NCBI GenBank assembly: GCA_041697335.1
Contig: JBGUGD010000039.1
Coordinates: forward strand, 128,001 to 192,000
DNA from: Vampirovibrionaceae bacterium NZW_1234
GTDB taxonomy: Bacteria > Cyanobacteriota > Vampirovibrionia > Vampirovibrionales > JAGQHJ01
DNA length: 64,000 nucleotides
Direction of reading: 5' to 3'
Shown here: positions 24,001 through 36,000 of the stretch, piece by piece
Layout: every line of letters starts with the position of its first letter
Position numbering within the stretch: position 1 is the stretch's first letter
Position numbers: made by a program

Positions 24001-27000
24001 TAAGGCGTTGCCAAAACCAGCACGAGAAAGGCCCTCTCTGGCCAGGCAGACGGCTTGTAAAGGCGGATTGAGAAAAAAGCTTACTCGGCGGCAGCTTCTT
24101 CAGCAGCTGGGGCTTCTTCAGCGGCAGGGGCCGGCTCTTCGGCAGGAGCAGCAGCGGCAGCTTCTGCTGCAGCTTTTTGGGCTTCAGCAGCTTCAGCGGC
24201 GGCGGCTTTCGCCTCTTCCTGTTCCTTCAAGCGCGCTTGGGCTTTCTTGGAAAGGCGCTCTTTTTGCGCTTTTTCCAGAACAATCAATTCACCGGTTTCA
24301 GGAGCTTGCTTAATCAGGCGAACCACAACCTCGGTCGGCACAGCACCTTTACCCAACCAGTCGTTGGCAGCTTGCTTATCCAATTTCAGCTCGCGGGACA
24401 AGGGGTTGAAATATCCCAGTTCTGCCAAGGGAGCGCCGTTACGACGAGCCCGAATGTCCATCACCACGATACGGTAAAACGGTCTTTTCTTTCTGCCTAA
24501 ACGCTTTAAACGAATTTTAACCATTCCTAAAGTAATCTCCTAGTTCACATGTGAAGTTTTATCTATATAGCACAAAGCCCAAAGGGACTCAAGACAAGCT
24601 CAGGTCTGGAAACACCTCAAAACGGGCCCCGGTCATAAACCGGTCAGGGGTATTATAGAACAAAGGCATCGAAAGATCTTGTCTTTGTGCCCCACGCCCC
24701 CGAAAACCCAGAAAACAGCTCCCGTCAGTGGCGGGAGCTGTAAAATGATAACTCAGATTCTGCGTTTAGAAAAAGCGAGGGGGCTGAGCGCCTTGATTCT
24801 GCCCGGCAAAAATTTGGCTGAACAAGAACACCAACAAGAACTTGAGGATCTCATCCAGTTTGTCATTTTTCGGGGGCTTCGGTGGTTTGGGCGGCTCGGG
24901 TTGACTGACGCCAAAGTCAGACAACTCAATGAGTCGGTTCCTGCCGGCCAGATCATCCAGTTCCGTCCGGTTCGATGACGAGAACATCCCGCGCATGATC
25001 AAGAGCTTACCGTCGCTGTTGGAATCCACCAGGCGGTCGCCGGACTCTAATCCAATGGCCAAATTTTCCAACACATTGGCCAGGTTGCGATCGGCAACCA
25101 ACGAGGCCTTATCACGTAAATCCTTGGCACTGACGTTTAAATCCCGTATCGGCGCACCGGCAAGGGGTGAAATAAATAAACCACGTACACGATCCACCTC
25201 AACAGGAGTGATTTGACGATACTGTGGCCGGGGTCGAATCATCATGTCTCAATTCCTCCTAAAATCCAAAGGAGCACCTAATTTAACTCTCTTGCATGCA
25301 TTAAAACAAACATTAGATATTTTTTGATATCTATCTTCATACTTATTTAATATTTCGCAAGGATGCCTCAAAACCGAGAAACCGCTGAATACAGGCACCC
25401 GCAGGAATAATAAGACTATCCAGCACGATTAATCCAGAATCAAAGGCGCATTACGCTCGTGAGGCAAGCGGTACAGCCCCGGCGGCGGGGCTGCCTGCTG
25501 GCCTTGGGTTCTTGTCAGATCCAACGGCACATTAAGGCGCACCACCAGATTATGATTCAGCTGATTGCGACCGGGGCTGGCCACATCCACAAACTGCAGC
25601 ATATATCCGGCCTCGACAAAGGACTTGTTCTTAAACGTCCGACGAAACCCCGTAAACACCCGCTCCTGGTTAAACCCTGAATCAATGTGAGGCGTATCAT
25701 TAAGGTTCATCAGCAGCTCATTACTGGCCACCCAGGACCAGGGTCCTTTACGAAGGGGCACGAGTGCCCGAATCAAATAACGTCCCCGGACCGACACCTC
25801 GGCCTGATCCTCGATAAACCGTTGCTCCAGGCGAAACTGATGATTAAACCGGACCTTTTTAACGGCATGATTAATCATCGCCTGCTGCCACACCCGTTGC
25901 TCAAACTGCACACTTGAATCCCCAGCATCATCGGTCGGAAAAATGGGGGACCATAAATAACCGGCGGTCAGGCTCAGATGCGTGTTCACATCATAGGTCA
26001 CAGACGGGCGCACCCGGACCAAGGCCAAATGGGTGACGTTCTCTGAAATACGAGGCTGCACCTCCACCGACAACCGGAATTTCTTGACCGGAACCTCCAG
26101 GGTTACCGGCAGCCAAAGCTGCAAATCGTCTTCTAGAGCCCATGCGCTTAGCCCGCTCTGGGCAATCAGCAGCACCCCAAGCAGCAACCCCATCCCCCAC
26201 CTGAAAAAAATCATTTCTATAGACCTGAGTTCAATGACACACAAGGAAGAGAAATCTGCCGCAGCAATCCACTCCGGGGCACCAGATCACCGCTTAGACC
26301 TTCATCGACTCTGGAACCAAGGTTCCCAATCCGGAAAAATACTGAACAAAGACAAATTGAGACACGTGAGCGTTTCATAAAAGATGCTCCCGACTATGCT
26401 ACTGGAATCTCAAACATCCACTCAGGCAGAAACAGCTACCTTACCGAGAATCAACCCGAAGAATCCGATTTCGCTCGGCCTGCGGGAATCCCAAGCCCCT
26501 ATGCCGTGGGCTCAACGTCTGTTTAGGATTTTTTGTGGCCCTTGCCCAGAAACACCGAATACAGCAGCAAGGCCATACAAATTCCCAGAATAATGACAAT
26601 GGACCAGAGCACCAGGCTGCTACTCAGGAAGAGGGTGGGCAAGAACAAGGTCATCAGGAAGAACAACCCAAAAAAGAACAGCACCCAGTGTTCATCAACA
26701 AATTCGGTGAACGTCATATGATCATGATCGTGATCGGACATAATGTGTGATGCTCCCTCTGATTACGCTTCTGCAATGAGACCGAAACTGGCAATCATCA
26801 ACAGCAGGAAAAAGAAAAAGGAATAAAACCAGATATATCTCATAAAGAGACCGATTTCTTGCTGTGAATCGACTTTGGCGGCTCGAACCATGGTGTCAGC
26901 GACTCCTTCTATCTATCTTACGACTTTGCGCCAGCGCCGGCGTCATACGTATTGAGGAAGCTGACAAACTCCGTTGCCATTTCCCCAAAGCGGCTGTACT

Positions 27001-33000: not shown

Positions 33001-36000
33001 AAACATGTAATCGCCGGCAGCCACCATCTCGCCGCCGCCACGGTCTTGGTAGCGGTTAAACTGGGTATGGCAGTAGAAACAGCCTTCCCGACGATAGATG
33101 TTCCGACCGGCCAATTCTTTGGGCGTGTACTGATGCGCCGCAGCGGTCGGAGTCGGACGAAAGGTACTGGCCGGCAGAACCGTGGTAACAAAGATAATGA
33201 CTAAGAAGATGAGAACCACAAAGCTTCCAGCAACCAGATAATTTATTCTCATAACCGAAGGTCCTTTTTCTATCCTATTCTTCTGCCGATTCTACTGCTC
33301 GGGCCGATACTAAACGTAGACAATGCCCGTGGGGGAATGCGGGAGCGCCTCGCATTGCTCACGGCTGAAGACGGTTTTGTACACATTAAACATAAAGAGA
33401 ATTTGACCCAGAACAATCATCACGCCCGACAGGGAGCGGATCCACCAGTAGGGTACCAGCTCGATAACCCACTGATCCAGGGGAATCCCGTGGTGCCAGC
33501 CTGCCGACTGAACCAGACCGGCAATGGTCAAATCGATCATCATCAAAATCCAGCCATACAGGGACAACCAGAAGTGCCACACAGCCAGGCGCTTGCTGTA
33601 CATCTTGCGCCCCGTAATCCGGGGGATGATGTAATAGGTGGCGGCAAAGACAAAGAAGGAGAAGGTTGCCAGCAAGGCCATGTGGGCGTGGGCCACAACC
33701 CAGTTGGTAAAGTGAAGATACCAGTTAACCCATCGGGTCGCCTGAAAGGGCCCTTGAATACAGGTTAAGAGATACGCAATCCCGCCGGCCATGGCAAAGC
33801 GAAGCGGAATGTGTTCAGCCGCCGTATGCCATTTGCCTTTCAAGGTCATAAAGAAGTTGGTCAATACCGTCAATACCGGCACCAACAAAAAGACACTGGA
33901 GATAACGGCCACCGATTTCAGCCACTCGGGAACCGGGGACTGCAAAATGTGGTGCGTCCCGGTGGGGGCATAGAACATCCCGATGGTCCAGAACCCGATC
34001 ATGGATAAGGTGTGGCTATAAAGCGGGTTGCCGGTAAACTTGGGAATCAGGTAGTACATAATCCCAACCCCACCGACGGTAAACCACATCCCTAAGATAT
34101 TGTGTCCGTAGAACCAACCGGTAATGGCATCGTTCAAACCTTCCAGCTGAACAAAGGCCCGGTTGCCGATAATGTAAACGATGGGAAACCAGAAGAGCGC
34201 CCCAAGGAAGTACCAGATGGAGACGTACCATTTTTTCTCCGTCCCGGTCATCACGGTCATCCAGCAATTGACGCCCAACATCAACAAGGCCAGCAAAACG
34301 GCCCAATCCAAAACCTGAATGGCGGCGCCACCAATATAGATGGTCCCAGCCAGTTCCGCATATTCACGGGCTTCCGTGTCCCCGTTCAAAATGCCCCAGA
34401 TCCCCCAGAACATCACCAGGTTCCAGGCAAACATGGTCACGTTACCCAGACGCTCGCTCCACAAGCCACGACGTCCCGAAAGGACGGGAATAATGTAGAA
34501 CATACAAGCGGCATAACCCATCGAGAGCCAGCCGACCAAGACAGCGTTGGTGTGAACCGGGCGCAAACGACCAAAGGACAGCTGGGCGACACCGGCCAGG
34601 GCATCCGGCACATCAAACTGCATGGAAGCCAACAAACCGATAGACGTCCCAAACACCAGCCAAAAGATGGCCGTGATCATGAAATTCCGACTCGCACTGT
34701 ACGGTTCTCGACTAAAAATGGCAGATAAAACGCGTTCCATAAACTATAGGGACTCCTCTACTGTGGGGGCTTTACCCAGCATCCTTCGGGCATACTTTGA
34801 GCCACGATATAGCATAGTATCCCAAGAGCTGTGTTTGCAGAATATGATATTTCGCAAATGGCCCCGATCGCCTTGACGCCAAGCCTCCTCGCTCTGGGGT
34901 CAGAATCGGGTATAATACCTGTGTTATGACACACACCGACTCAGCGTTAATTTCCATTCACGATCTGACCGTCGCCTTTCCCACGGAGGACGGGCCCGCT
35001 TATGCAGTCAACGAGCTGAATATCAGCGTGGCCTCCCAAAGCGTGCTCGGTCTGGTGGGCGAATCCGGGTGCGGCAAAAGTATGACCAGCCTGGCCATCC
35101 TGGGCCTCATCCCCAAGCCCGGCTACATTGCCCATGGCCACATCCACTTTAACGGCCGGGACCTGACCACGCTCTCCCAGGAACAACTTCGCCACATCCG
35201 GGGCAAGGAAATCGCGTTAATCCCCCAGGACCCGCTCACCTCCTTGAATCCGGTCTACACCATTGGCGACCAGCTCTCGGAAGTGCTGATGCTCCATCAG
35301 GGCCTGTCAAAAAAAGACGCCCTGGCCCGTGCCGTGGAGCTCTTAGACCAGGTTCGCCTGCCGAACGCCAAAAATCGCCTGAACGATTACCCCCACCAGT
35401 TCTCCGGCGGCATGCGCCAGCGCGTCATGATTGCCATGGCCTTGTCCTGCCACCCCAAGCTGCTGATTGCCGATGAGCCGACCACGGCCCTGGATGTGAC
35501 GGTCCAGGCCCAGATCCTGGCCCTGATGAAAGAAATACAACAGGACATGAAGACGGCCATTATCCTGATTACCCATGACCTGGGGGTGGTGGCCGAAATG
35601 TGCGATGATGTCGCCGTCATGTACGCAGGCCGGGTGGTGGAACATGCCCCGGTCAAGGCCTTGTTTGCCTCGCCCTGGCACCCCTACACCCAAGGGCTCT
35701 TGAACTCCTTGCCCAAAGCCGACCGAAGCCGCCTGGAACCCATCGAGGGCCAGCCTCCGGCCTTAACCAAAATCCCGGTCGGATGCAGCTTTGAACCTCG
35801 CTGCCCCAAGCGCATGGACGTCTGCACCACGGCTTTTCCCCCCATTACGGCCAAAAGCAGCGATCATGACGTCCGCTGCTATGCCGTCATGAACACTCCC
35901 AGCGCCTAGATTTTGACAACGGTCTTGCCCTTTCCCGAAAGGTCGTCCTGAGACGGGTTCGGGCTGAACGTCACATCACGAGGTATTGAAACGGTTTTGT

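Follow-up and report, generated by a model that had tools for sequence, protein, structure and literature searches.

A 64,000-nucleotide stretch of contig JBGUGD010000039.1 from Vampirovibrionaceae bacterium NZW_1234 (the window) carries genes for a cbb3-type oxidase and a Rieske/cytochrome b module, together with a second cytochrome b fused to a ferredoxin domain and an MvhD-type protein. The locus raises the question of what the second cytochrome b and its Fe-S partners do in a respiratory module. The initial annotation regarded the Fe-S proteins as extra subunits and proposed a branch from the quinol pool to ferredoxin-level or disulfide-type partners.

Gene cluster and oxidase components

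The analysis confirmed thirteen tightly packed minus-strand ORFs between 26523 and 34740, arranged as in the initial annotation. Their successive spacings are 57, 0, 30, 11, -4, 0, -4, -1, -35, -4, 26, and 21 nt, and three of these represent the 4-bp overlaps of which several had been claimed. The domains run in the order COX1; FixO with a second c-type domain; FixS; dihaem cytochrome c; Rieske; cytochrome b N and C parts; cytochrome b with Fer4; and FlpD. From gene order, the cluster is read as an operon. A promoter and terminator scan of the locus gave counts at chance (7 versus 7.8 and 12 versus 13.1) and was uninformative, and the next gene, encoding a DUF2490 protein, lies 278 nt on. Both small membrane ORFs described at the operon end are present. 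S3 (26763..26891), a conserved single-helix peptide, directly follows MvhD in nearly all loci. The last ORF, S4 (26523..26741), a lineage-restricted two-helix protein, scored >100 bits in L001-L003 only and 21 to 24 bits in three further loci; it therefore falls outside the conserved cassette, which comprises about 12 genes.

CcoN (33310..34740; PF00115, E 7e-84), subunit I of a C-family (cbb3) oxygen reductase, is the sole heme-copper oxidase (COX1) found in the genome. The six His ligands and the catalytic Tyr of helix VII, at positions assigned from CcoN motifs, are present in 39/39 sequences, and the CcoN score of 258.7 lies below the ccoN equivalog cut-off of 583. CcoO (32299..33252; FixO, E 3.6e-34) is fused to a second c-type domain (Cytochrom_C; two CxxCH), with PRK14486 as the top NCBIfam match, under cut-off. 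Next come two small proteins at conserved positions, a CcoS/FixS-like maturation peptide (32128..32298; PF03597 above cut-off) and a single-helix membrane protein (31927..32097) that matched nothing in Pfam or NCBIfam and may be CcoQ-like, judging by position and size. The dihaem cytochrome c (31049..31915) has a lipobox-like LAGC, two CxxCH motifs, and matches to Cytochrome_CBB3 and Cytochrom_C. It probably stands in for cytochrome c1/f and for CcoP; at the cluster, the ccoP profile was far under cut-off.

The Rieske protein (30438..31052) had been described as missed by Pfam, but PF00355 matches it with 21.3 bits, over the 20.3-bit cut-off. It has a twin-Arg-like N-terminus (RR motif in 37/44 sequences). 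The [2Fe-2S] ligands and the Ser are kept in 44/44, with Tyr in 32 and Phe in 12, and the window protein carries the S-Y (high-potential) signature by the rule of PMC4122944.

Two cytochromes b with complementary conservation

Only two cytochromes b, PetB1 and PetB2, were found in the genome. PetB1 (29007..30437) has the cytochrome b fold, a Qo motif (ILSDWY), and bL ligands H95/H221; it had been called a full-length cytochrome b. The N and C parts are indeed there, but both bH ligands are missing, with K109 and Y235 in their places and a conserved E233. Among 46 PetB1 sequences, the helix-B bH position holds Arg in 34, Lys in 12, and His in none, and the helix-D position holds Tyr in 44 and His in 2. 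Both bL His are present in all 46 and SDWY in 45, the exception being truncated. For the 150 best HMM matches used as a control, the helix-B position was His in 111, Arg or Lys in 28, and another residue in 1, with 10 fragments or misaligned sequences.

S1 (28732..29010), a conserved two-helix membrane protein at a conserved position with no Pfam family over cut-off, follows PetB1, its ATG start overlapping the PetB1 stop by 4 nt. S2 (28502..28732), also two-helix, is kept in sequence in close relatives only. Beyond it lies PetB2-Fd (27328..28536; cytochrome b and Fer4), whose true start is likely the GTG at 28488, after AGGAG. The initial annotation saw only a second cytochrome b N-terminal domain. 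The predicted model (pLDDT 87.9) contains more, with helices A-F and the ef segment preceding a 2x[4Fe-4S] domain that, from the topology, would lie on the cytoplasmic side. All four haem-ligating His of this di-haem protein are present in 48/48 sequences and the eight Cys in 47-48/48. The Qo and Rieske-docking segments vary among relatives; W162, D163, and the Qo-motif acid D273 are kept in 48/48 and 25/25 (IDWL in the window, with D invariant). None of the canonical Qi residues was identified in PetB2, where the conserved N-side residues H58 (47/48), R226, and R229 are candidates. Fold searches with either cytochrome b returned only canonical cytochrome b chains.

The MvhD/FlpD-type [2Fe-2S] protein (26918..27331; PF02662, E 1e-23; four Cys in 47/47) is the only FlpD in the genome. 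The NCBIfam HdrA2 profile was matched contiguously by the PetB2 ferredoxin domain (profile 566-642) and MvhD (648-770); the likeness to the MvhD-like end of HdrA2 had been noted earlier.

Conservation of the two cytochromes b is complementary in sequence. The mean modal-residue fraction for PetB1 versus PetB2 was 0.97 versus 0.54 in the P-side cd helix, 0.90 versus 0.52 in the P-side ef loop, 0.66/0.70 versus 0.87/0.84 in the N-side segments, and 0.71 versus 0.72 at the D-helix end. A recent duplication, to which a shared H-[KR]-Y-x-x-D motif could point, was not supported: a quick tree placed the two in separate clades that are not sisters.

Of 45 distinct related loci, 38 keep the core gene order; 5 are cut at contig ends and 2 are split. 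Where the halves sit on different contigs, both are present, and the divergent locus L079 also carries the pair. In a class sample of 151 genomes, FlpD occurs in 88, full PetB1 in 87, and both in 86; since the genomes are kin, these conservation and co-occurrence counts are not independent. Given this co-occurrence in 86/89 genomes with either one, cytochrome b-Fd and MvhD belong with the complex III-IV module. Among 80 loci from a metagenome scan (alignment A3), only L078-L080 (identity 40-48%) were of the PetB1 family; the other 77 (24-38%) were excluded. In a separate search, L051-L077 matched the ferredoxin domain only and were left out.

Proposed pairing of PetB1 and PetB2 and possible direction of electron flow

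Since PetB1 lacks the bH site, PetB2 appears to complete the low-potential chain by supplying its missing half, instead of adding to it. The Fe-S genes keep their place in the module, where their products would form a cytoplasmic arm anchored by a di-haem protein, and lose the label of extra subunits. In the scheme that we propose, PetB1 would oxidize menaquinol (MKH2) at its Qo site; menaquinone genes (MqnA/D) were found in 20/21 relatives. The first electron would pass through the Rieske protein to the dihaem cytochrome c/CcoO, cbb3, and O2. Because PetB1 has no bH, the second would go from its bL over a bL-bL' bridge into PetB2 and on to bH', where menaquinone would be re-reduced on the cytoplasmic side. 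The other electron for this menaquinone would come from a cytoplasmic carrier through the MvhD [2Fe-2S] and 2x[4Fe-4S] clusters, giving a Q cycle in Mitchell's original form, into which a dehydrogenase port is built.

We consider the chances for a PetB1:PetB2 heterodimer, with flow in either direction, to be about balanced. Slightly short of even, in our judgment, is the case for an obligately asymmetric natural complex III, one cytochrome b oxidizing quinol and the other serving as cross-membrane half and Fe-S port, which would exchange electrons with cytoplasmic carriers, either acting as a dehydrogenase itself or through quinone-based bifurcation. The complete proposal, a menaquinol:O2 oxidoreductase supercomplex with this heterodimer as core and the arm as electron input, is put forward tentatively. 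bL-bL transfer has been demonstrated in cross-inactivated bc1 (accessible text of PMC7908018). Complex prediction, run on the heterodimer, gave 0.42 versus 0.00 for the best control and weakly favours pairing, by a mark that 116/157 solved and 2/215 mismatched pairs reached, but that just 18 solved pairs reached at ≤0.60. The runs agreed in at least 96% of contacts, with a partner pLDDT of at least 67, and the score could reflect likeness to solved cytochrome b homodimers. Speaking against this proposal, a search of the genome turned up no dehydrogenase for MvhD to dock with, and 2 of about 45 loci have the halves apart.

The strongest competitor, which we regard as unlikely yet worth serious weight, is that two separate units share one operon. 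A PetB1 homodimer with the Rieske protein would be a simplified quinol oxidase with no Q cycle, sending both electrons to the Rieske protein while bL buffers, and PetB2-Fd/MvhD would be a stand-alone cytoplasmic carrier:menaquinone oxidoreductase feeding the quinone pool. In other phyla, PetB2-Fd and MvhD correspond to one fused protein, and these fused forms make one clade with PetB2 (SH-aLRT 100, quick tree). In 23/23 non-Melainabacterial loci, the fused family occurs with neither Rieske nor PetB1 genes, and eNOR-like oxidases stand alongside in 20/23; evidently it works there without PetB1, which leaves room for stand-alone or maturation roles. The invariant W162, D163, and D273 also favour separate units, as PetB2 may have a P-side quinone site of its own. 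The two split genomes and the non-sister placement of the two cytochromes b add to this, and bH loss has a precedent in Pyrobaculum, where one bH ligand is missing from cytochrome b and the accessible text names no partner for it (PMC4122944). On the other side stand the near-perfect co-occurrence and fixed adjacency of PetB1 and PetB2, the weak docking result, and the strictly conserved bL ligands of PetB1, which would need an exit for the bL electron.

Rather improbable, to our mind, is the direction suggested by the initial annotation, in which the same heterodimer would use the arm as an exit. Bifurcation at Qo, from menaquinol with a high-potential Rieske protein, would drive the second electron through bH' and the Fe-S clusters to a cytoplasmic acceptor. 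An S-Y/S-F (high or Mid+) Rieske with xDWY and menaquinone breaks the rule of PMC4122944, in whose accessible text PDWY pairs only with low or Mid- Rieske proteins. With -80 and >+260 mV, a second electron at about -420 mV is possible on the P side by our arithmetic, and complex I, which lacks NuoEFG in this genome, would take reduced ferredoxin. However, crossing to the N side costs about 120-150 mV of membrane potential, which leaves about -270 to -300 mV, not low enough for typical ferredoxins, so that outward flow to the ferredoxin level would be energetically marginal. In the 94.75%-complete genome, neither a NiFe hydrogenase (the MvhAG partner) nor an FeFe hydrogenase was found, and a motif scan detected no HdrA-like (FAD-bearing) protein; the single CCG protein looks GlcF-like in our reading. 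Together with the missing bH of PetB1, these absences tell against the proposed branch.

We therefore regard the arm as a cytoplasmic port with input more likely than exit. Input is favoured by a paralogue fused to Fer2 and FAD/NAD-binding domains, by the scarcity of NuoF-like genes (just 5/87 PetB1 genomes), and by the role of MvhD, a donor-side adaptor in Hdr/Mvh/Flx complexes. Equally doubtful as the exit is that PetB2-Fd/MvhD is a maturation reductase of heme-copper enzymes, supplying electrons from the cytoplasm, for example to reduce Cu or handle haem, in place of the 4Fe-4S cupric reductase CcoG: FixG_C (CcoG) occurs in 0/21 relatives' genomes with CcoS retained, a heme-copper enzyme is the constant neighbour in both contexts, and SCO1, CtaA, UbiA-family, and Cu-ATPase genes surround the fused module in eNOR-like clusters, but neither SCO nor CtaA is among the cassette's family matches, and the bH loss of PetB1 and the fixed place right after it would stay unexplained.

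Relation to known systems and implications

The window operon is the published Melainabacterial complex III-IV operon, a cluster of cbb3, Rieske, and two petB genes (Soo et al. 2017, via 10.1101/531145; Matheus Carnevali et al. 2019, PMC6349859), given as a C-family oxygen reductase with "petB, petB, petC" in supplement file 11 of PMC6349859. In their accessible parts, these papers say nothing of absent bH ligands, the ferredoxin fusion, MvhD, or a heterodimer. The genes are labelled cytochrome b6f subunits in PMC6349859; we reject this assignment for the window, where the haem-cn position is Gln in PetB1 and Tyr in PetB2, with Cys in neither, and the cassette analysis gave no cytochrome f match. 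A cytochrome b fold, a Rieske protein, and a Qo motif are shared with canonical bc1/b6f, as would be the bL-bL bridge. Those complexes pair two identical copies, each with four His and a Qi site, whereas here the halves would be different gene products, cytochrome c1/f is missing, and a cytoplasmic Fe-S arm is added.

The caution that the fusion family might already be published proved justified. The PDWF-FeS clade of Kao & Hunte 2014 (PMC4122944), with members in Magnetospirillum magneticum, Turneriella parva, and Alicycliphilus, combines cytochrome b, 4Fe-4S, and MvhD domains, as do PetB2-Fd and MvhD; our clade placement rests on fused forms in our own sample. In the accessible text, members of that clade are single polypeptides whose clusters contain no Rieske gene, and they have PDWF where PetB2 has IDWL, whereas the window has two adjacent genes, a Rieske protein, and a cytochrome b without bH. 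That study dropped any sequence in which one of the four His was missing, which would have excluded PetB1. No paper was found in our literature search on the cbb3/Rieske/two-cytochrome-b/Fe-S combination or on a heterodimer. The accessible parts of PMC5317091, PMC4683180, and PMC8756737 hold nothing on the window operon (a PetB + FlpD protein does appear in an appendix table of PMC8756737), and those of PMC11214002, including 6 of 7 supplements, do not mention the fusion.

With HdrABC-MvhAGD, Flx, and Qmo, the window shares a ferredoxin domain like that of the HdrA C-terminus and MvhD with its four conserved Cys. It differs in its PetB-type anchor, and neither a FAD-bearing HdrA (by motif scan) nor a hydrogenase was found in the genome.

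The oxygen-respiration cluster of these non-photosynthetic cyanobacterial relatives was known, and the apparently complementary cytochrome b pair is the point added here. If the proposed heterodimer is correct, every low-potential electron has to cross the bL-bL bridge. According to the accessible text of a 2021 review, the physiological meaning of this bridge in bc dimers is unclear and N-side electron input to b6f is contested (PMC7908018); a natural heterodimer relying on the two would open both to direct test. The port module would also be common to eNOR clusters across many phyla, where the link to the di-haem-Fd-MvhD module suggests that this NO reductase family draws electrons from an uncharacterised source. 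As PetB1 and PetB2 form the only cytochrome b system here and the PetB1 system occurs in 87/151 genomes sampled from the class that is sister to the oxygenic cyanobacteria, the mechanism bears on O2 respiration in these lineages and on the b6f complex claimed for them.

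Organization and distribution of the operon

The operon (26523 to 34740) comprises 13 open reading frames on the minus strand in the order that the initial annotation had described, and its reported tight packing with several 4-bp overlaps was recovered as well, with gaps of at most 57 nt and three such overlaps. Domain assignments were confirmed by family scans, but the Rieske protein, claimed to be missed by Pfam, scored 21.3 bits against a cut-off of 20.3 bits. The sole COX1, the sole two cytochromes b, and the sole FlpD found in this 3.7-Mb, 94.75%-complete genome all lie in the cassette. 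Its nearest relatives are labeled Vampirovibrionales. CcoN is an O2 reductase, since every ligand and the catalytic Tyr were kept in 39 of 39 sequences. The next gene downstream, 278 nt beyond the operon, is a DUF2490 family member (25429 to 26244) that is likewise on the minus strand and, in the loci examined, does not belong to the conserved cassette.

For comparison, loci L001 to L027 and 20 further regions, two of which duplicated earlier loci, gave a sample of 45. The order CcoN-CcoO-cytochrome c-Rieske-PetB1-PetB2Fd-MvhD-S3 was identical in 38 of them; five others were cut by contig ends, and two (L006 and L007) carried the PetB2 half alone, with PetB1 on a different contig from PetB2-Fd/MvhD. 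In the family of these two, 15 of 17 genomes had no FlpD and only a weak cytochrome b match of about 370 aa. Among 151 genomes of the class, full PetB1 (called at E ≤ 1e-88) was found in 87, FlpD in 88, and both in 86; like the locus counts, these numbers come from kin and are not independent. Contig ends or fragmented assemblies were involved in the three discordant genomes. The same gene order was found on a divergent metagenome contig (L079), and PetB1-family proteins were named from Holophagaceae and Armatimonadota. A contig labeled Chloroflexota (L017) grouped with Obscuribacterales in both cytochromes b, reflecting either misbinning or transfer.

The operon is real, conserved, and partly known. 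Its original description is reportedly that of Soo et al. in 2017. The Melainabacterial operon is published in the available parts of PMC6349859 (text and supplement file 11), and the accessible part of 10.1101/531145 mentions it with citation of the original work.

A complementary pair of cytochromes b

In PetB1 (29007 to 30437), the cytochrome b next to the Rieske gene, the heme bL ligands H95 and H221 were kept in all 46 copies and the Qo elements were near-invariant. The bH ligands, whose absence the initial annotation had overlooked, were replaced by Arg (34 copies) or Lys (12 copies) in helix B and by Tyr in helix D (44 of 46; His in L079 and L080 only). An invariant Glu stands two residues before the helix-D position, and the Arg/Lys-Glu pair would occupy the vacant bH pocket. 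On these alignments, loss of the bH ligands is the mark of one family, because among the best 150 profile-search hits the helix-B position held Arg or Lys in 28 and His in 111 (10 were fragments or misaligned, and 1 was other); the family formed a clade in a quick tree (SH-aLRT 99). Five of the 28 retained the helix-D His. PetB1-family members with this His but not that of helix B (P0010, P0012, P0013, P0014, P0016, L079, and L080) possibly represent an intermediate stage of the loss. In the available part of PMC4122944, bH loss was noted in Pyrobaculum, and cytochromes b missing any His were left out of the data set.

In PetB2-Fd (27328 to 28536), all four heme His were present in 48 of 48 copies and the eight ferredoxin Cys were kept. 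The predicted PetB2 model finishes in helix F, and the ferredoxin domain would be cytoplasmic by canonical topology. The two proteins are complementary in sequence conservation. On the P side, means for PetB1 versus PetB2 were 0.97 versus 0.54 (cd helix) and 0.90 versus 0.52 (ef loop), whereas two N-side segments gave 0.66 and 0.70 versus 0.87 and 0.84; a third segment showed no difference. W162, D163, and D273 are invariant in PetB2, which counts against a clean split of roles. No paper on such a pair was found in a literature search that included parts of the text and six of seven supplements of PMC11214002, most subscription papers lying outside it.

The fused module in other phyla

In loci L028 to L050, the cytochrome b, ferredoxin, and MvhD parts form a single polypeptide, which groups with PetB2 in one clade (SH-aLRT 100, quick tree); the fusion is already published as the PDWF-FeS clade in the accessible part of PMC4122944. 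Fusions of 680 to 720 aa (L029, L031, L035, L040, L044, and L048) carry an extra C-terminal stretch of about 200 aa without a Pfam match. A subunit I with Gln at the active-site Tyr position was encoded in 20 of the 23 loci, spanning several phyla, and would be eNOR-like by this substitution; the available part of PMC8756737 gives it as an eNOR trait. Because this subunit recurs and a Rieske motif was found in none of the 23 loci, what stays constant around the module is a heme-copper enzyme rather than a bc complex. Neighboring genes encode CuA subunit II, SCO1, CtaA, a UbiA-family prenyltransferase, a Cu-type ATPase, and cd1-type proteins. No description of this link was found in the literature searched, which included parts of PMC11214002 and left most subscription papers outside.

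Beside the eNOR-like clusters lie second COX1-like proteins (L030:4956-6455, L034:11687-13516, L035:4880-6445, and L045:7726-9144), which lack the helix-VII CuB His pair and have a W-x-x-GHV[LI]Q motif. The L034 cluster also contains a PetB2-family paralogue fused to Fer2 and FAD/NAD-binding (FNR-like) domains (4163 to 6247, minus strand), and a Zetaproteobacteria MAG carries two tandem copies of the cytochrome b-ferredoxin-MvhD fusion (L045:4028-7257).

Proposed electron routes through the pair

Gene content points to menaquinone as the quinone: of 21 relatives, 20 carry MqnA/D and none has a menB match above the cut-off. The Rieske signature was S-Y in 32 sequences and S-F in 12, and the potential would be high or Mid+ by the rule in the accessible part of PMC4122944, where PDWY pairs with low or Mid- Rieske proteins only. 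Complex I of this genome (C7:111314-122121) is a cluster without nuoEFG, as in Melainabacteria according to the available part of PMC6349859; no NuoF was found in it, and NuoF-like genes occur in just 5 of the 87 PetB1 genomes. Neither NiFe nor FeFe hydrogenase was found in the 94.75%-complete genome, and reading of translations revealed ETF/Fix-type, Sdh, and NDH-2-like genes.

A PetB1 Qo site with bL and without bH would need another way out for the second electron, and the adjacent PetB2 would supply bL' and bH'. On these grounds of cofactor motifs and gene context, we favor, at evenly balanced probability, a PetB1:PetB2 heterodimer in which electrons would pass over a bL-bL bridge, as known from cross-inactivated bc1 in the accessible part of PMC7908018. 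Complex prediction weakly supports this pairing, with a score of 0.42 against 0.00 for the best of three controls, agreement between runs in at least 96% of contacts, and partner pLDDT of at least 67. Among reference pairs, 116 of 157 solved and 2 of 215 mismatched ones attained the score mark, but those that did so with scores of 0.60 or under comprised just 18 of the solved pairs and both of the mismatched ones. Because cytochrome b homodimers are solved structures, resemblance to them may account for the pass. That PetB1 and PetB2-Fd/MvhD are instead two independent units is rather unlikely.

For the heterodimer, the tentatively preferred direction is input from a cytoplasmic carrier through the Fe-S arm to PetB2, because this inward route would be downhill and agrees with the donor-side role of MvhD (26918 to 27331) and with the NAD(P)H-domain paralogue. 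Use of the arm as an outward route is improbable: by our arithmetic it could attain roughly -420 mV at the P side, but with the membrane energized the N side would allow only some -270 to -300 mV. A CcoG-like maturation role for PetB2-Fd/MvhD is likewise doubtful. The point of interest is the complementary cytochrome b pair with its Fe-S port, rather than the operon itself.
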